Positions 1-8,122 of a stretch of 31,796 nt of DNA are shown here, one piece after another. The notes beneath the pieces are model-generated. The model was not told the DNA's origin and ran no database searches. It worked only from the letters and a program-made list of their open reading frames with translations. Position numbers and translations under genes: made by a program. Numbering within the stretch: position 1 is the stretch's first letter; every line of letters begins with the position of its first letter. The stretch lies in assembly GCA_037441385.1 (NCBI GenBank), contig JBBISH010000079.1, positions 1-31,796 of the forward strand, written 5' to 3'. This stretch comes from Myxococcales bacterium. Its GTDB lineage: Bacteria; Myxococcota_A; UBA9042.

Positions 1-2412
1 GTGGCGGTGAATTGTGACGATGGGAATGGTTGTACTACGGACAGTTGCAATGCGGCGGTGGGGTGTCAGTTCGTCAACAACACGGCGGTTTGCGACGACG
101 GCAGTGTGTGCACGGTTGGGGACAAGTGTGGCGGCGGCGTTTGTCTGCCCGGGGCGGCGACCGTGTGCAACGATGGGAATGGGTGTACGGATGATTCTTG
201 CGACAAGGTGAAGGGGTGTCAGTTTGTGAACAACACGGCGACGTGTGACGATGGCAGCCCATGCACGGTGGGCGAAGTCTGCGCAAGCGGAGCTTGTGTT
301 GGCGGCAAGCCGATTCTCTTCGGACCGACCAAGTTCGGCGGGACAGGAGCGGACCTGTTTTCTGCGGTGGTTGAGTTGCCTAATGGATACCTTGCGGCGG
401 GTGAGACAACGGCAAAGGGTGCGGGCGGAAAGGATATGTGGCTGGTCGCAACAGACAAGCAGGGTTCTGTCATGTGGGAAAAGACATGGGGTTGGATCAA
501 ATCTGACTCGGCTCGAGCCATCGTTGCAGTGGTCGATGGTGCGGTCGTGGCGGGCAAGTCCGACGCGGAAGAATATCCTGGTGGAGCGGTAGGTGTGCCC
601 GTGCTCATCAAGTTCGACAATCTGGGGAATTTCCAGTGGAGTCGACCATTCGGGCCGAATTATTCCGGCACAATCGAGGCTTCCTACTTTCGAGTCCTCA
701 CGAACTCAACTGGCTTGGTTGCTGTGGGTGCCGCCCAAGTGCCCAATCACGGCAACGACTTCTTGCTTGTCCAGGCTGATTTCGACGGCAAAACGCTTTG
801 GTCCAAGACTTATGGCGGCGGTAACTACGAGCGGGCCAACGATGTACTAGTGCTGCAAGACGGATTCGTCATAGTGGGGGAAACCATGTCGAAGGGTGCT
901 GGTCAAGCAGACTTCTGGATGGTCCGAACGGACGAACTTGGCAATGTGCTGTGGGATCAGACGTTTGGGGGGGGCGATTACGACCAAGCATATGGAATAA
1001 CGGCGGTACCGGGCGGGTACCTGCTGACGGGAAACACGTTGAGTATTGGGGCGGGGAAGGTTGATCTTTGGCAGGTGCGCACGGATTCTGCAGGGGCAAT
1101 CATTTCAAGCAAGACATTCGGCGGCGCCGACGACGATCAAGGGTACAGGCACTCCAGCTACGGCGAAGACTTTGTGTTCACAGCCCAGACGAAATCATGG
1201 GGTACAGGAGGGTACGACGCGTGGATTCGAGTCGGGAACTCGGACGGGGCGACAGTCTGGGAACGCCTGTTTGGCGGCCCCCTAAACGACCGTCTTGGGG
1301 CAGTGGTACCCCTTTCGGGCGGACTGGTCATGGCGGGCTTTACTGACCAAGTCGCTGGCGGGACGTCGGCCGGGTGGCTAGTTCGCGCCGACTCGTGGGG
1401 CAACGCGAGCTGTTCAGAGTCCGGACCCTGCGCACCGAAGAAACTCTCCGACTGCGCCGACACCAATCCCTGCACAGCTGACCTTTGCGACGCCGCGCAC
1501 AACGGCTGCTACCACACTGCCCTGCCCATTGGCTCGCCTTGCGCGCCGGGCAAGATGTGCAATGGTTCCGCGGCCTGCTCGATTGCACCGCCGGCCGGCA
1601 TGACGTTTGTCCCCGGCGGCACGTTCTGGATGGGGTGCAACGATTCGGGCTGCTCCGGCCCGTCCGACGAGAAGCCACAGCACAAAGTGACGCTGTCCCC
1701 GTACTACATCGACACCACCGAGGTCACCGTCGCCGAGTACACCAAGTGCTACGCGGCCGGCCAGTGCGCGGAGCCATTCGGCGACAGCAAGTCGCAGATG
1801 TGCAATTGGGACCAGGTGGGACACAAGGCCAAGCCGGGCCGCGACCAACACCCGGTCAACTGCTTGAGTTGGAAGGAGTCGCAGAAGTACTGCAAGTGGC
1901 GCGGAGGTCAACTCGACGGGTCCAACGGCAGCAAGTACGATTTGCCGACGGAGGCCCAATGGGAGATGGCTGCGCGAGGGGATTGCGAAAGAAACGGCAA
2001 GGCGGCGACCGACGACTCCGGGTGCGCCGCTGCTATGCGAATGTACCCGTGGGGTAGCCAGACAGCGACATGTGCCCATGCTTCCATTTATGACGGTGTC
2101 GCATTTGGGTGCGGCACGAACGCCACCTTCCCGGTCGCCAGTAAGGTTGCCGGAGATAGCCCGTATGGGCTTCACGACATGGCAGGAAACGTCGACGAGT
2201 TCGTCCTCGATTGGTATCTCTTTGGCTACTACCAGAATTCGCCCACGACGGATCCAGTGAACGCTGTCCCGCCGCAATACGGCCAGCGGGTGGTCCGCGG
2301 GAGCGACTTCTCGGACTATGCAATTGCGGTCCGGTCCTCGCAGCGCAGAAGCACCGATCCAAGCAACGCCAACTACACTACCGGCCTCCGCTGCGCCCGA
2401 ACCTACCCCTAA
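1..2412 (+). CDS. Large mosaic secreted/surface-type protein, 5'-truncated by the window: Cys-rich CDDGNxCTxDxC repeats + 7-blade beta-propeller-like repeats + C-terminal FGE-sulfatase (SUMF1/EgtB/PvdO, C-type lectin fold) domain
   Basis: Open frame from base 1 (the GTG is probably an internal Val). Has CDDGNGCTTDSC-type repeats, seven ~50-aa W-x-K-T-x-GG...D-x-W-x-V-x-x-D-x-x-G repeats (~320-1410), and FGE motifs GMTFVPGGTFWMG, DEKPQHKV, LPTEAQWEMAARG, YPWG, DMAGNVDE, RVVRG, GLRCA (~1590-2409). Confidence 0.9.
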   Translation: MAVNCDDGNGCTTDSCNAAVGCQFVNNTAVCDDGSVCTVGDKCGGGVCLPGAATVCNDGNGCTDDSCDKVKGCQFVNNTATCDDGSPCTVGEVCASGACVGGKPILFGPTKFGGTGADLFSAVVELPNGYLAAGETTAKGAGGKDMWLVATDKQGSVMWEKTWGWIKSDSARAIVAVVDGAVVAGKSDAEEYPGGAVGVPVLIKFDNLGNFQWSRPFGPNYSGTIEASYFRVLTNSTGLVAVGAAQVPNHGNDFLLVQADFDGKTLWSKTYGGGNYERANDVLVLQDGFVIVGETMSKGAGQADFWMVRTDELGNVLWDQTFGGGDYDQAYGITAVPGGYLLTGNTLSIGAGKVDLWQVRTDSAGAIISSKTFGGADDDQGYRHSSYGEDFVFTAQTKSWGTGGYDAWIRVGNSDGATVWERLFGGPLNDRLGAVVPLSGGLVMAGFTDQVAGGTSAGWLVRADSWGNASCSESGPCAPKKLSDCADTNPCTADLCDAAHNGCYHTALPIGSPCAPGKMCNGSAACSIAPPAGMTFVPGGTFWMGCNDSGCSGPSDEKPQHKVTLSPYYIDTTEVTVAEYTKCYAAGQCAEPFGDSKSQMCNWDQVGHKAKPGRDQHPVNCLSWKESQKYCKWRGGQLDGSNGSKYDLPTEAQWEMAARGDCERNGKAATDDSGCAAAMRMYPWGSQTATCAHASIYDGVAFGCGTNATFPVASKVAGDSPYGLHDMAGNVDEFVLDWYLFGYYQNSPTTDPVNAVPPQYGQRVVRGSDFSDYAIAVRSSQRRSTDPSNANYTTGLRCARTYP
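13..300 (+). repeat. Intragenic tandem repeat, 153-nt (51-aa) period, Cys-rich units
   Basis: gatgggaatgg at 19 and 172; ggggtgtcagtt and aacaacacggcg recur at the same offset; peptide CxDGNGCTxDSC..GCQFVNNTAxCDDGSxCTVG occurs twice. Confidence 0.85.
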
Positions 2413-2428
2413 CCAACCCCAGGAAACC

Positions 2429-3217
2429 ATGCAACCTCCTGAAACCCAAATCCCCCTCTCCACCATCCACGACACCTCCCCCGAGTTCGCCACCCGCCTA
2501 GACCTCCACCCCAGCGACCTCGCCGCCGACCTCGAAGCCAACGGCCAGATCAACGCCATCCACCTCTGGTCCACCACCGGCGAGCCCCCGTACCTCATCC
2601 TCGCCGGCCACCGCCGCACCGCCGCCGCCAAGCTGCTGCAATGGCCGACGATCCGCGCCATCGTCCACCAGGGCCTGCCCCGCAACGACGCCTGGCGCCT
2701 GGCCTGGCAAGACAATGCCGCCCGCCGGTCCCTGACCGCCAGCGACCGCCAATGGACCGTCGCCCGGCTGCTCGCCGAGGGCCACAACCAGGCCACGGTG
2801 GCGGCGATGCTGGGCGTCAGCAAGTCGGTGGTGTCGCGCGACGCCGGCTGGCTGCAGCTGCCGCAGGTGGTCCGCGACCAGGTCGGCGAGCAGGGCTTCA
2901 GCCACGGCCACGCGGTGGCGCTCATCGACCAACTGGGCACGCTGTCGGCGGCGGCGATGCACAAGCTGGTCGAGGCCTACCGCAAGGACCCGTGTGAGCG
3001 CGAGGAGTTCCGCAAGCGGACCCTGCAAGCCGCGCGCACCGGTCGGGTCCGCTGGCCCAAGGCGGCCAAGGTGAGCGGCGACAGGCTGACTTTGGACCTG
3101 GCCGCGCTGCGGGCCGACGACCTCAGCGACAGCCAACGCGAGCAGCTGGTGGCGCTGCTGCAGCGGGCGTTGGCGGCGGTGGTCGTGCCGCCGGTTGCGG
3201 TGGCGGGCGAGGAGTAG
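2429..3217 (+). CDS. Orphan ParB/RepB/Spo0J-family protein (CTP-binding N-domain + HTH + C-terminal region), 262 aa
   Basis: ATG at 2429 after AGGA. Box I-like LAADLEANGQINAI, Box II ILAGHRR, DNAARRSL (ENxxRxxL-like), and HTH NQATVAAMLGVSKSVVSR followed by LPQVVRDQV...SHGHA. Confidence 0.88.
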   Translation: MQPPETQIPLSTIHDTSPEFATRLDLHPSDLAADLEANGQINAIHLWSTTGEPPYLILAGHRRTAAAKLLQWPTIRAIVHQGLPRNDAWRLAWQDNAARRSLTASDRQWTVARLLAEGHNQATVAAMLGVSKSVVSRDAGWLQLPQVVRDQVGEQGFSHGHAVALIDQLGTLSAAAMHKLVEAYRKDPCEREEFRKRTLQAARTGRVRWPKAAKVSGDRLTLDLAALRADDLSDSQREQLVALLQRALAAVVVPPVAVAGEE

Positions 3218-3226
3218 CCGGGCCAA

Positions 3227-3244
3227 GAGTTGCGCGCGCAACTC
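3227..3244. promoter_or_regulatory. Perfect 18-bp palindrome GAGTTGCGCGCGCAACTC, candidate parS-like ParB loading site
   Basis: Exact inverted symmetry, 9 bp after the parB stop. The 16-bp core AGTTGCGCGCGCAACT keeps the GTT-N-C-N-CG-N-G-N-AAC skeleton of parS (TGTTTCACGTGAAACA). Confidence 0.6.
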
Positions 3245-3358
3245 GGGGTCTAGCGCCTTGAAGTTGCAGCGGGTTTTGGAAATGGAGTGCGGTTTGGCGA
3301 TTTCAGCTCAGTATCTTGGCATGCACCTGAACCGTGTAACGTCATGATCTTGTCCGAC

Positions 3359-3417
3359 ACCCCTTCGCCCAAAGCTTTGGGAGAAGGGGTCGCGCCGGAG
3401 GCGCGGGGGATGAGGGC
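3359..3417. repeat. REP-like extragenic palindromic element (CCCTCATCC...CCCCTTCTCCC...GGG.GAAGGGG type on the minus strand)
   Basis: 32-bp palindrome at 3359-3390 (ACCCCTTCGCCCAAAG|CTTTGGGAGAAGGGGT, one mismatched pair), then hairpin CGCGCC-GGA-GGCGCG and GGGGATGAGGGC. Confidence 0.65.
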
Positions 3418-3444
3418 CTCGAGCGCCGCGGCGATCACCCGACC

Positions 3445-3492: not shown

Positions 3493-3717
3493 ATGGACTG
3501 GCACGAGCGTATCACCCTGGAACCCGGCAAGCGGTCGGGCAAGCCCTGCATCCGCAACCTGCGCATCACGGTCGGCGACGTGCTCGGCTGGCTGGCCTCT
3601 GGGATGAGCTACGCCGAGATCCTCTCCGATTTCCCAGAGCTCGAGCAGGCTGACATCTTGGCGTGCCTGGCTTGGGCGGCCGAACGCGAGCACTCAACGT
3701 GGAGCGCGGCGGCGTGA
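3493..3717 (+). CDS. DUF433-family antitoxin (VapB45-like)
   Basis: MDWHERITLEPGKRSGKPCIRNLRITVGDVLGWLASGMSYAEILSDFPELEQADILACL is the typical DUF433 pattern; strong SD. Confidence 0.92.
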   Translation: MDWHERITLEPGKRSGKPCIRNLRITVGDVLGWLASGMSYAEILSDFPELEQADILACLAWAAEREHSTWSAAA

Positions 3718-4052
3718 AGCTCTTGCTTGACCAGCACTTGTCGCGGCGCTTGGTAGTGCGGTTGGCCTGGGCGTTCCCGGGAACCATGCACACCTCGGAC
3801 CTCGGCCTGTCCTGCGCGGACGATATCGCGATTTGGCACCGGGCGCGGATTGACGGGTTCGTGCTGGTCACCAAAGATTCGGACTATGCGGCACTTTCTG
3901 TCCGATTCGGTCGCCCGCCGCTGGTCGCCTGGCTGCGTGTGCCAAACTGCGACGTTGCTTCCCTGGAGGCCTTGCTGCTCCAAAGCAGTGACCGTCTGCA
4001 AGCTGCGGAGGCAGACTTGGCGGTCGCCGTGATCGAAATTCGCGGCCGCTAG
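3714..4052 (+). CDS. DUF5615 PIN-like toxin (VapC45-like)
   Basis: GTGA overlap with the antitoxin stop. Motifs KLLLDQHLS, GLSCADDIAIW, VLVTKDSDY, PPLVAWLRVPN. Confidence 0.9.
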   Translation: MKLLLDQHLSRRLVVRLAWAFPGTMHTSDLGLSCADDIAIWHRARIDGFVLVTKDSDYAALSVRFGRPPLVAWLRVPNCDVASLEALLLQSSDRLQAAEADLAVAVIEIRGR

Positions 4053-4153: not shown

Positions 4154-7100
4154 ATGACCGCCAACCCCACCGTAGACGACCGCTTCGAGCTGCACAGCAT
4201 TGCCGGGCGCGGCGGCATGGGCATCGTCTATCGCGCCTCGGACCGGGCCACCGGCCGCGAGGTCGCGGTCAAGGTGCTGCAGGCCAGCGACGCCGAAGCC
4301 AGCGAGCGATTCCTGCGCGAAGCGCTGGTGTTGGCGACCATGGCCCACCCCGGTATCGTCCGGCACGTGGCCCACGGTTACACCGCGGCGGGCGAGCCCT
4401 ACCTGGCGATGGAGTGGCTGACGGGCGAGGACTTGTCCGAGCGCCTGGATCGGGGCCGACTGGGCATCGACGAGACGGTCCATCTTGGCGCCGATATTGC
4501 AGAATCGCTGGCCTATGCCCACGGCCAGGGCGTCGTCCACCGCGACCTGAAGCCGGCGAACGTCTTCTTGCTCGAGCGGTCGCTCAAGGACGTGCGGCTG
4601 CTGGATTTTGGCATCGCCCACCTGCAGAGCGGCGAGTCCGAGGCGACCCGCACGGGTACGGTGATCGGCACGCCCGCCTACATGGCCCCCGAGCAGGCCC
4701 GCGGCGAGCGCGGTTTGGACGGGCGGGCTGACCTCTTTTCGCTTGGTTGCGTGCTGTACGAGTGCTTGACTGGGCGGGCGCCGTTCGTGGCCGCCTCGGC
4801 GATGGCGGTGCTCATCAAGGTGCTGCTGGAAGAGCCGCCGCCCCTGAGCGAGCTGCGCCGCGACGCACCCCAGGGCCTGGTGCGGCTGGTCGAGCGGCTG
4901 CTGGCCAAGGATCCGGCCGATCGGCCGGCCAGCGCCGAGTTGACCCGCGCCGCCCTGACCGATGTGGTGCTGCTGCAGGCGCCCGCGGACCCAGCGGGCC
5001 CGGTGGTGGCGCTGACCCAGAGCGAGCGGCGGGTGGTCACCTTGCTCGTCGTGGCCAATCCTTGGCCCAAGTCGGCCGAGGTCGAGCCGCAAGATCAGGC
5101 GACGCGTCGCGATTTGGTCCCCGCGGACGCGCCCACTACGGTGCTGGACCGGCCGGCCGACGAGGGCGACGAGGGGGCGACCCTGCAAGTGGTGCCGATG
5201 GGCCCGCTGCTGCAGCTACAGCGCCGGCTAGGGGCAATCGGCCTGCGCTTGCATCGGCTGCTCGACGGTACGTTGCTGGCCCTGGCGCACAGCCGCGCCA
5301 CACCGGCCGAACAAGCCGCGTTGGCGGCCGAGGGCGCGCTGCTGCTGCGCGAGCGCATCCCGCGGTTGACCGCTGTGATTGCGACCGGTTACGGCACGTC
5401 CAACGCCCAAGACGGCGGCGAAGTGGCGATCGGCGCGGCCATCGAAGCGGCGGCGGATGCGCTGCGCGACCTGGTGGCGGCCAATTCCGGGCTCGTCGCG
5501 CTGGACGACAACACCGTGAGCCTGCTGGGGGATCGCTTCGCCATCGACGCCGAGACCGGCCTGGCGCCGCCCTTTGCGTGGCGTCTGGGGCGCGGGCCGC
5601 AGTCTTCGCGGACCAAGCATTTGCTGCTGGGCAAGCCGACGCCCTTGGCGGGTCGCGGCCGAGAACTGGCCATTTTTCGGGCTCTTTTTGACTGCCTGGC
5701 GCACGACGGCGGCACCAAGGTGCTGGTCACGGGCGATCCTGGCTATGGCAAGTCGCGACTGCTCGAAGAGTTTGCCCAGTGGGTCGAGCACAATCACCGC
5801 GAGGCCCAGGTCTGGCGGCTTCGTTCCGAGGCCGGTGCGCAAGATTCGCCTTATGCGTCGTTGGGTTCCTTGCTCACCCAAACGGCGGGCCTCCAGGCCG
5901 GCATGGGCGACGCCGAGCGGACCCAGCGCGTACGCGTGCGGGTGGCGCGGCTGGTACCTGCCGATGAGCGCGAAGCCGTGATGGATCTGGCGCGGGCGAC
6001 CCTGGGCATCGATCCCGGCGGCGCGTCGCAACGCCTGCGCGCGGCCCGCGAAGACTCCAGCTTGATGGCGGACTTGGTGCGCGACGGCTTTGCGGCGTGG
6101 TTGCGGGCCGAGGCGGCCCAGGCGCCCCTGGTGGTGGTGGTCGACGACTTGCAGTGGATCGACGCGCCGTCGCTGCACGCCATCCGGCTGGTGCACGAGG
6201 CGGTGTCGGACGAGCCCGCGCTGTTCGTGGGCGTGGCGCGGTCCGAGATCTACGAGCGGTTCACGTTCCTCCGTGGCAATCCGCGGGTTTGGCACGTGCA
6301 TCTGGGGCCGCTGTCGCCGCGGGCCTGCCGCGAAGTCATTACGGCGGTGCTGGGCGAAGGCGTGGCAGCCGAACAGGTCGACAACCTGACCCGGCTGGCG
6401 GCCGGCGAACCCTTCTACTTGGAAGAGCTTTTGCGGGCGGTGGCGACGGGCAAGCAGGCGCAGGCGACCACGTTGCTGGCGATGGCCCAGGCACGCATCG
6501 ACGCCCTGAGCCCCGACGCGCGGCGTGTTTTGCGGGCTTCGGCCGTGTTTGGGATGCGGTGTTGGTCCGAGGGCGTGGCGGCGCTGGTCGGCGCACAGAT
6601 TCGCCAGCAACTGCGCGAGCTCGCCGCGGCCGAGATCTTGGGGTCGGCAGACCGCAACACCCTGCAGGGTCAACATGAACTGGTGTTCCGCCAGGCGTCG
6701 CTCCGCGATGCCGCCTATGCCAGCCTGACCGACTCGGACCGCCAGTTGGGGCACCGCTTGGCCGGCGAGTACTTGCAGAAAGTTGGCGAGACCGATGCGG
6801 TAGTCCTGGCGCGCCACTTCGACCTGGGGCACGACCCCGAGCGCGCGCAGATGTTCTACGGTCTCGCGGCCGAAAGTGCCCTGGCCGCCCACGACTACGC
6901 CGCTGCGCGCCACTGGGTGGACCGCGGTTTGCAGTTCGATGTGCCTGGCGAGAGCCGCGCGCGCTTGCACCTGGCGCAGGCGGACCTGGCGATGACGGTG
7001 GGCCAGCCGATGAACGCCTTGGTCACGGCCCAAGCGGCCGCCGATGGCTTCCAACCGGGGACGCGGCACTGGTATCGCGCGATGGCCGAGGTGGGGCGAG

Positions 7101-8122
7101 CGCTGGTGTACTCGGCGCAGGTGCTCCGGGTGGCGCCGCTGGTCCAGGCGTTCCTGTACCCAACGCCCGAGCCGACTTCGTACGAGGGCGCTGTGTTTGC
7201 CGCCGCGCGGCTGGCGGTGAACGTGATGTTCGCCGACCAGATTGGCCCGGCCGACCAACTGATCGCCTTTGCCGAGGATCTGCAACGCCGCGCCGATCCT
7301 CCGATTGGTGTGGCAGCCCGAGCGCGGTTGGCGGGTGCGGCGTCCTCGCGGCTGGCCCTGTATGGCGACCTGGGCGACGCCCTGCGGGCCACGCAACAGG
7401 CGCTGACGGGGTTTGCCAGCATCGCCGACCGCCGCAACGCCGCTGCCCAGCGCCTGGATTTGGGCGTGATGCTGCTTCGCATCGGCGATCACGTCCGCGG
7501 CGAACTGGAAATCCGCCAGGCGACGGACGAGTTGCAGACCCTGGGCTTGCCGGGTACCGCCGGCGTTGGGCGCGTCTGGCTGGGCGTGGCCAACTGGCGG
7601 GCCGGTCGCGATGTCCAAGCGCAGGCGTTGCTCGAGGGAGCGATCGGCGAACTGGCCGACGGCGGCGTCGCGCTGACCCGGAGCTGGGCGCTGGCGGCGT
7701 TGGTCAGCCTGCACTTGCGGGCCGGGGCACTGGCCCAGGCCGATGCCCACCTGCAGCAGCTTCAGGCAATGGTCCGCGGCGCGCCGCCGATGTGGTCGCA
7801 GGCTGCGGCGCTCACCGCCGAGGTTCGCCTGGCCCAAGGGCGCCTGACAGAGGCTCTAGAAGCCGCAAAAAGTGCTCTGCAAATCTGGCGCGAGGGGGTC
7901 CCCAGTTCCGAGCGGGCCTTGCGCGCCCTCGCCGTCTTGGCCGAAGTGCAAGCCGCCTGTGGTCAGCGCGACGACGCCCGCGCTGCCGCCGACCAAGGCC
8001 TGGCGATGGCCGCCAAGATCCGCCGCAGCCTGCAGGACCCGCAACTCGAGGCGTGCTTCGACGTCAGCGGCGAGGTGGTGCGTCTCAACCGCGTCGCCTC
8101 CCGCATGCTGGGTATTGCGTAG
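4154..8122 (+). CDS. Ser/Thr protein kinase fused to a degenerate cyclase-like region, STAND-type AAA ATPase and TPR-like helical C-terminus
   Basis: Kinase motifs GRGGMGIVY, VAVK, HRDLKPAN, DFG, YMAPE, DLFSLG. Linker SERRVVTLLVV. GRGRE, Walker A GDPGYGKS, Walker B VVVVDDLQWID, GEPFYLEE. Ala/Leu-rich repeat C-terminus. Confidence 0.92.
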   Translation: MTANPTVDDRFELHSIAGRGGMGIVYRASDRATGREVAVKVLQASDAEASERFLREALVLATMAHPGIVRHVAHGYTAAGEPYLAMEWLTGEDLSERLDRGRLGIDETVHLGADIAESLAYAHGQGVVHRDLKPANVFLLERSLKDVRLLDFGIAHLQSGESEATRTGTVIGTPAYMAPEQARGERGLDGRADLFSLGCVLYECLTGRAPFVAASAMAVLIKVLLEEPPPLSELRRDAPQGLVRLVERLLAKDPADRPASAELTRAALTDVVLLQAPADPAGPVVALTQSERRVVTLLVVANPWPKSAEVEPQDQATRRDLVPADAPTTVLDRPADEGDEGATLQVVPMGPLLQLQRRLGAIGLRLHRLLDGTLLALAHSRATPAEQAALAAEGALLLRERIPRLTAVIATGYGTSNAQDGGEVAIGAAIEAAADALRDLVAANSGLVALDDNTVSLLGDRFAIDAETGLAPPFAWRLGRGPQSSRTKHLLLGKPTPLAGRGRELAIFRALFDCLAHDGGTKVLVTGDPGYGKSRLLEEFAQWVEHNHREAQVWRLRSEAGAQDSPYASLGSLLTQTAGLQAGMGDAERTQRVRVRVARLVPADEREAVMDLARATLGIDPGGASQRLRAAREDSSLMADLVRDGFAAWLRAEAAQAPLVVVVDDLQWIDAPSLHAIRLVHEAVSDEPALFVGVARSEIYERFTFLRGNPRVWHVHLGPLSPRACREVITAVLGEGVAAEQVDNLTRLAAGEPFYLEELLRAVATGKQAQATTLLAMAQARIDALSPDARRVLRASAVFGMRCWSEGVAALVGAQIRQQLRELAAAEILGSADRNTLQGQHELVFRQASLRDAAYASLTDSDRQLGHRLAGEYLQKVGETDAVVLARHFDLGHDPERAQMFYGLAAESALAAHDYAAARHWVDRGLQFDVPGESRARLHLAQADLAMTVGQPMNALVTAQAAADGFQPGTRHWYRAMAEVGRALVYSAQVLRVAPLVQAFLYPTPEPTSYEGAVFAAARLAVNVMFADQIGPADQLIAFAEDLQRRADPPIGVAARARLAGAASSRLALYGDLGDALRATQQALTGFASIADRRNAAAQRLDLGVMLLRIGDHVRGELEIRQATDELQTLGLPGTAGVGRVWLGVANWRAGRDVQAQALLEGAIGELADGGVALTRSWALAALVSLHLRAGALAQADAHLQQLQAMVRGAPPMWSQAAALTAEVRLAQGRLTEALEAAKSALQIWREGVPSSERALRALAVLAEVQAACGQRDDARAAADQGLAMAAKIRRSLQDPQLEACFDVSGEVVRLNRVASRMLGIA

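Follow-up and report, generated by a model that had tools for sequence, protein, structure and literature searches.

What does a ParB protein do when its gene stands without parA and is followed directly by a perfect palindrome? The question arises from the window analysed here, a stretch of 31,796 nucleotides that forms the entire contig C79 of a 6.6-Mb, 91%-complete myxobacterial genome (the host, G000), so that the available sequence begins at position 1. A parB gene encoding 262 amino acids (2429..3217, plus strand), assigned by Pfam, fold search and alignment to a clade of orphan ParBs in which G[FH]RR replaces GERR, begins 16 bp beyond the TAA that closes the preceding gene, and a perfect 18-bp palindrome (GAGTTGCGCGCGCAACTC, 3227..3244, unstranded) begins 9 bp past the parB TAG as its candidate binding or loading site. 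These features, the single palindrome copy returned by a search of the window, and the lack of a nearby parA (zero ParA-family matches on contig C79, which begins at position 1) all agree with the original prediction, made from the letters of the DNA. A single unitig runs unbroken over 957-3406, although it comes from a run that may be the assembly's own source and is hence not independent.

The GHRR Box II, the DN..R motif and the HTH that had been predicted are all borne out, the first two as G60-H61-R62-R63 and D95-N96-x-x-R99 and the third by an HTH_ParB match above the Pfam cut-off. ParB_N stays below its cut-off (20.8 vs 26.3 bits, E 4e-4), as do the NCBIfam models for ParB (50.4 vs 58.45 bits), Noc (TIGR04285, 50.9 vs 315 bits) and RepB. 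An AlphaFold model (pLDDT 91) has helices at 121-143 and a folded C-terminal part, consistent with a C-terminal domain following the HTH, and the top PDB matches in a fold search are M. xanthus ParB-CTPgS, Noc and KorB (8qa8, 8qa9). With its N-terminal ParB/Srx fold and GxxR Box II, the modelled product appears to belong to the ParB-CTPase fold superfamily. Alignment with the canonical ParBs of relatives showed neither a GERR Box II nor an LGRGL-type N-terminal ParA-binding peptide; the general-base glutamate of the canonical GERR, E93 in M. xanthus (bioRxiv 10.1101/2021.05.05.442810), is replaced by a histidine, and the glutamine of Box I has moved from its usual position. KorB is described as also being without that glutamate and still hydrolysing CTP (PMC11790492). 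By motif comparison, R63 and N96, which together with G60 are invariant over 38 aligned clade sequences, would correspond to R117 of the KorB GARRYR motif (CTP binding) and to KorB N146 (hydrolysis; PMC11790492).

Sequences gathered with a profile were used for a FastTree tree (152 sequences, 200-400 aa in length), which places parB in a subclade of eight (support 0.998) whose sister is a group with two Cas6 fusions, both lying inside the large G[FH]RR-for-GERR clade. Six homologs share 46-54% identity with the parB product, whose N-terminus is ~20-25 aa shorter than in five of these six closest relatives; five of the six lie on contigs shorter than 2.4 kb. For intact members of parB's own subclade no DNA context was found in viral, metagenome or genome contigs, and a second search of 400 genomes of the phylum for this subclade returned only a fragment in G003, where such a palindrome is absent. 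Broken parB copies occur in G016, G025 and G003, which suggest that the clade gene is often dispensable, and its distribution is patchy (11/107 class genomes). In the sister subclade, two distinct proteins (P0009/P0161 and P0013) are fusions of a ParB with a CRISPR Cas6 domain that exceeds the Pfam cut-off.

The proposal that a ParB without ParA is coupled to a palindrome beside its gene is supported by the clade as a whole, in which such pairing lies far above background. We searched 401 phylum and 107 class genomes, which gave 23 clade genes at E<1e-40 with the window parB and a chromosomal-type gene (G098) left out; the broken genes of G016 and G025 were added by hand after their sites had been seen, making 25 genes in 19 genomes, and the G003 fragment, a weaker orphan in G270 and a second host gene on contig C39 were excluded. 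A gene was taken as paired when a perfect palindrome of at least 16 bp lay no farther from the profile match than 350 bp on the upstream side or 250 bp on the downstream side. Paired genes number 15 of the 25 (10 of 13 genera), or 13/23 without the two hand-added loci, compared with 48 of 2,149 host genes (2.2%) in the same windows. Both the windows and the ATCGAT motif described below were picked after viewing the loci and kin are not independent, so that binomial P-values overstate the significance of these counts.

The expectation that each homolog would have a downstream palindrome held in part: a site is present at a gene end in 15 of 25, with eight of these sites downstream and seven upstream of the gene, and a perfect 16-bp palindrome is missing from the other 10 relatives. 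An ATCGAT core is shared by 14 of the 15 paired sites. A degenerate form of this motif occurs at 21/25 clade loci compared with 8.5% of host genes and 3/26 chromosomal-type ParB loci, a comparison that is partly circular because the motif was built from the clade loci. The 3' sites of relatives begin 11, 12, 23 and 29 bp past the stop codon, and within the window's family four genomes each have a single exact GGAAATCGATTTCC site, located at the ParB locus, while G009 has one without a ParB. A Walker-A ParA was found at 0/26 clade loci, as the original prediction would have it. One locus (G418, L274:4587-6900) holds a tandem pair of clade ParB genes preceded by a single ATCGAT palindrome.

The window palindrome differs from the ATCGAT type yet occupies the usual 3' position, and no ATCGAT-type site lies within the pairing windows around parB. 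The proteins differ in parallel: most of those with ATCGAT sites have a recognition helix like GLxxRQxRNL, and that of the window ParB reads GVSKSVVSRD. Specificity switching through the HTH region is established for ParB and Noc, where specificity is set by few residues in and after the HTH (PMC7383237). The combination of a different helix with a different palindrome would fit a switch of this type, at this one locus; the switch reading implies that AGTTGCGCGCGCAACT-like sites would lie at the gene ends of the helix-sharing homologs P0002-P0008 and P0160. On these sequence comparisons we consider it quite probable that an HTH dimer recognises the palindrome, the altered helix going with the altered site.

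At the scale of the host genome the single-copy claim did not survive: what is a single palindrome in the window is one of four copies, and a ParB stands beside only this one. The 16-bp core occurs four times (contigs C79, C60, C134 and C154) compared with zero occurrences for each of 30 composition-matched shuffled palindromes, and perfect palindromes of at least 18 bp lie near the ends of only 15 of 2,149 sampled host genes (0.7%). Each copy heads a non-coding element of ~65 bp (3227..3291 in the window, plus strand), composed of the palindrome, a TAGC-N4-TGAAGTTGCAG segment that supplies a third half-site, and TTGGRAATGGRGTG; over the four copies 31 of 47 downstream flank positions are invariant. 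A terminator, a sigma-70 promoter, a stable RNA fold and an Rfam match were all sought in the element and none was found, and a conserved reading frame was ruled out as differences between copies are spread beyond third positions. No ParB adjoins the copies on C60, C134 and C154 (the other host ParB sits on C39); their surroundings include accessory genes, a group II intron and a REP-like repeat. In the C60 copy the similarity extends back through the spacer into the final ~25 bp of parB, as would be expected of a relic. The three ParB-less copies may be remnants of earlier insertions, or they may serve as additional loading points.

Several further observations concern these surroundings. On C154 (L240:4769-5328) the 3' part of a group II intron lies ~140 bp past the palindrome of the element copy, and just upstream of the C60 copy (L238:3122-3257) there is a ~135-bp repeat with many copies in G007. 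In the window a dispersed REP-like hairpin repeat (3359..3418, unstranded; 47 BLAST hit lines at E<1e-3) is separate from the palindrome element. The possibility that the palindrome is the REP or TIR end of a Y1 (HUH) transposase was tried and rejected (0/6 Y1_Tnp loci with the palindrome within 900 bp). Beyond the host, the 16-bp core was found in 3/37 family genomes, all of the host's genus and including the host; the genus relatives G001 and G009 have one core copy each, without the downstream block. The 18-mer has at least 117 matches across genomes of all species plus one in a virus, and a clade ParB stands beside none of the 118 listed (81 of these loci examined over >1 kb, the others over ~600 bp); most of the matches elsewhere we read as chance, coding for ELRAQL. 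The pattern of the whole element gave 0 matches in metagenome contigs.

These copy numbers count against our main reading, in that three of the four genomic copies are without a ParB and two relatives (G001, G009) hold the core with no host-type ParB detected. They lend weight to an alternative, in which the palindrome belongs to a family of dispersed repeats that another protein reads, with ParB next to it by chance at a hotspot of insertion, a setting also suggested by the REP-like repeats, toxin-antitoxin-type genes and group II intron around the copies. The most likely reader would come from a second family of ~230-aa proteins that has a weak HTH_ParB match and is without the ParB N-domain. 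The host genome encodes 11 full and 3 partial copies of this sister family (C23:21257-21943, C18:31898-32587, C106:7513-8250 and 11 more), and all five genus relatives searched have it (11-19 matches each in four, two in one; genus loci L281-L310). A 20-bp palindrome with the same arms as the window site (AGTTGCG...CGCAACT) and a 4-bp spacer is present in about 12-14 copies on C23 and C64, depending on the mismatches allowed, and one copy lies 25 bp after the gene for a 228-aa family member on C23, which makes that protein a rival reader of the window palindrome. We nevertheless regard this alternative as unlikely. The 18-bp copies carry their own conserved flank, which was not detected with the 20-bp family, and a 2-bp change in half-site spacing normally alters recognition by a rigid dimer. 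The position of the palindrome just past the parB stop is moreover the pattern of the clade, with no ATCGAT-type alternative site near the gene.

Like the clade ParB genes, those of the sister family often have a private palindrome. Perfect palindromes of at least 16 bp lie at the gene end in 13/30 cases (the best 30 of 60 matches) compared with 10/828 host genes; they are up to 52 bp in length, mostly stand 50-90 bp upstream, and have differing cores that group with protein subclades. When the profile of one member was compared with that of the ParB clade, the probability was only 23% over 117 columns, so that homology of the sister family to ParB is a lead and not a result. Atlas clusters for the ~230-aa family are unnamed Myxococcota apart from one viral cluster, in which 21% of members have DUF1016_N, and among 30 viral contigs with an ATCGAT-type 16-mer none had a clade ParB beside it and one had a weak sister-family match. 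For a sharp third-position gradient running from C-rich at the 5' end to G-rich at the 3' end (positions 2340-3300), parB ranks third of 1,409 genes and sister-family members hold ranks 1, 2, 4, 6 and 7, while most ParB relatives elsewhere are without it. The 20-bp palindromes at C23:4563-41060 and C64:10530-21372 part toxin-antitoxin, defence-like and RHS-like genes in the manner of cassette borders.

Comparison with known systems indicates how a ParB and its site might work in the absence of ParA. With Noc/NBS and canonical ParB/parS the window protein shares its best sequence and fold matches and a palindromic site of 16-18 bp. Unlike these, it scores below the NCBIfam cut-offs, has no LGRGL-type peptide, is patchy in distribution and is not origin-linked. 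It falls outside ParABS and Noc, and by analogy would be expected to work like KorB/OB or VirB/virS. The likeness to KorB and its OB site of plasmid RK2 comprises a ParB fold, a P-motif without the glutamate (GARRYR in KorB, GHRRTA here), the conserved arginine and asparagine, and a palindromic site (PMC11790492). KorB regulates at a distance by sliding (PMC11790492), a mode that for the window ParB is only proposed. An IncC/ParA partner, a ParA-interacting peptide, the clamp-locking KorA and a plasmid location are described for KorB only (PMC11790492); the window ParB, by contrast, is encoded on a chromosomal contig with its site beside its own gene, and neither a ParA nor an evident locking partner accompanies it. 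Shigella VirB with virS likewise offers a ParA-less ParB-like protein, a defined loading site and control of neighbouring genes (the last two being proposed here by analogy), whereas VirB anti-silences H-NS on a virulence plasmid and the window locus shows no silencer link or fixed target set. The window gene further resembles the orphan ParBs of Kaljevic et al. 2025 (PMC12704722), which are widespread, stand alone outside parAB, are often mobile, and have a nucleotide preference that is reported as not predictable from sequence. The terms 'palindrom', 'integron' and 'Cas6' are absent from the main text of that paper, where cognate sites of orphan ParBs are thus not treated, and the present clade may still be in its datasets. 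Our literature search found no paper on this clade's sites or on an integron link.

Our best reading by analogy is that the module is a mobile KorB/VirB-like protein-plus-site unit acting locally. We give roughly even chances to the specific proposal that the lone ParB, encoded in an accessory stretch of the chromosome, binds the adjacent palindrome and then slides locally under nucleotide gating to repress its own gene and the accessory genes around it. If the palindrome is recognised, it is fairly probable that the bound DNA would stimulate ParB to close as a CTP-dependent clamp and to slide, on the model of KorB and VirB. Sliding would let a site work from either side of the gene, in keeping with relatives that have it upstream in some cases and downstream in others, so that the likely output would be autoregulation together with damping of nearby acquired genes, whichever those are. 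This freedom of placement speaks more for a sliding or position-tolerant mode than for a classical operator; the upstream sites, however, would also suit plain autoregulation. More broadly, and with considerable doubt, myxobacterial chromosomes might hold a hidden set of mobile protein-plus-private-palindrome modules, comprising CTP-gated ParB clamps and the sister family, whose sites and helices would co-diversify and which would coat and control the DNA that varies most, namely integron integrases, swappable surface genes and toxin-antitoxin islets.

Orphan ParBs are common, yet the DNA site is known for few of them. This clade brings predicted sites beside its genes, so that binding, nucleotide gating and sliding become directly testable with a short oligonucleotide. 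Its naturally occurring helix and site variants would add to the ParB/Noc specificity code, and orthogonal protein-DNA pairs could be drawn from them. Should the link to integrases and variable surface genes hold, the module would point to a new layer of control on the accessory DNA of myxobacteria; should binding alone hold, it would be one more KorB/VirB-like regulator.

As to which genes are affected, the original prediction was that the module regulates, or marks for exchange, the adjacent variable surface-protein gene. That gene (1..2412, plus strand) is 5'-truncated and encodes a secreted-type protein in which Pfam confirms the Cys repeats (Dicty_CTDC) and a C-terminal FGE-sulfatase domain, with a middle region that is probably propeller-like, a label carried over from the prediction. 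Its low-GC, foreign-looking composition was likewise confirmed (GC3 0.70 vs a 5th percentile of 0.81 for 255 Cys-rich genes) and is unlike that of parB (GC3 0.93), 16 bp away. A tie to surface genes would be in keeping with this composition and proximity and with four genera of the window's family, in which a Cys-rich gene directly follows the 3' site (5/10 3'-site loci, all in this family) compared with a Cys-rich neighbour for 11% of host genes; the Cys-rich lipoprotein-like genes in question differ at their C-termini. The gene order is however reversed in the window, where the surface gene precedes parB and the site, and the five Cys-rich loci may descend from one event. The predicted coupling to an upstream FGE gene was not supported: in three genus relatives the FGE homolog is not followed by a ParB, the subclade fragment in a relative has another upstream gene, and the Cys-rich genes elsewhere lie downstream of the site. 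Many relatives have other neighbours, including PIN, HicAB, McrBC-like, RadC and metabolic genes (54 of 73 listed neighbours scanned). The FGE gene is probably co-transcribed with parB yet is no conserved partner, and a role centred on it is in our view quite unlikely. The FGE gene was also considered and rejected as the target of a diversity-generating retroelement (DGR), as 2251-2412 has no second copy in the 91%-complete genome and the lone RT match is on another contig.

The module might instead be an accessory to site-specific recombination or to the traffic of cassettes, for instance by controlling or aiding integron integrases. This reading draws on the three loci in three families (genomes G042, G070 and G124; loci L051, L056 and L087) where an integron integrase (TIGR02249, over cut-off) adjoins the clade gene. 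In G124 (L087:2415-3613) five site copies spaced at 45 bp lie directly before intI. The top ranking of parB and the sister family for strand asymmetry points the same way if it reflects repeated single-strand exposure, as it may. The integrase is nevertheless absent from most loci, tyrosine-recombinase searches of the contig and the genome gave three host matches (26-34% identity) with none on contig C79, and a perfect palindrome is not attC-like. We judge this role to be very unlikely and retain local action of the ParB at its site as the preferred reading.

Alternatively, parB could be a partition gene left behind by a plasmid or prophage that integrated, or it could substitute for a missing chromosomal ParABS. 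The host genome contains neither a parAB pair nor a sequence within 2 mismatches of the canonical parS consensus, to which the window palindrome is unrelated; a ParB_N match is found in only 13/37 family genomes, and many of the myxobacteria searched seem to be without ParABS. The clade loci without ParA argue against partition, as do plasmid matches that are only partial (27-33%) and sites that are few and located at accessory islets. No close viral relative of parB was found, the one viral match covering only part of the query at 31% identity, with its locus yielding no ATCGAT palindrome. It is moreover a different orphan ParB, on C39 (C39:42064), that has apparent counterparts in some genus relatives. 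We consider a partition role extremely improbable.

Downstream of the element the window encodes a DUF433 protein (3493..3717, plus strand), which we take to be antitoxin-like, and a DUF5615 protein (3714..4052, plus strand), presumably its PIN-like toxin partner, both assigned by Pfam. These are followed by a 1,322-aa Ser/Thr kinase-AAA-TPR gene (4154..8122, plus strand; Pfam), which marks the right edge of a lineage-specific block. In 4/4 relatives holding that kinase the block is absent upstream of it and other, unrelated genes precede it; together with the FGE homologs that occur without ParB, this indicates that the block is lineage-specific and that the FGE link looks incidental. In two relatives the kinase comes after a TolC/MacAB-like operon, which in the host lies on C134 (4902-6200) before a different kinase, and this separation from the window kinase at 4154 is a rearrangement. 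A swap between C79 and C134 at their shared repeat was considered, as unitigs end there and TolC precedes the kinase in these two relatives, and is not favoured because the kinase-PEGA-like adjacency in G007 fits the C134 assembly.
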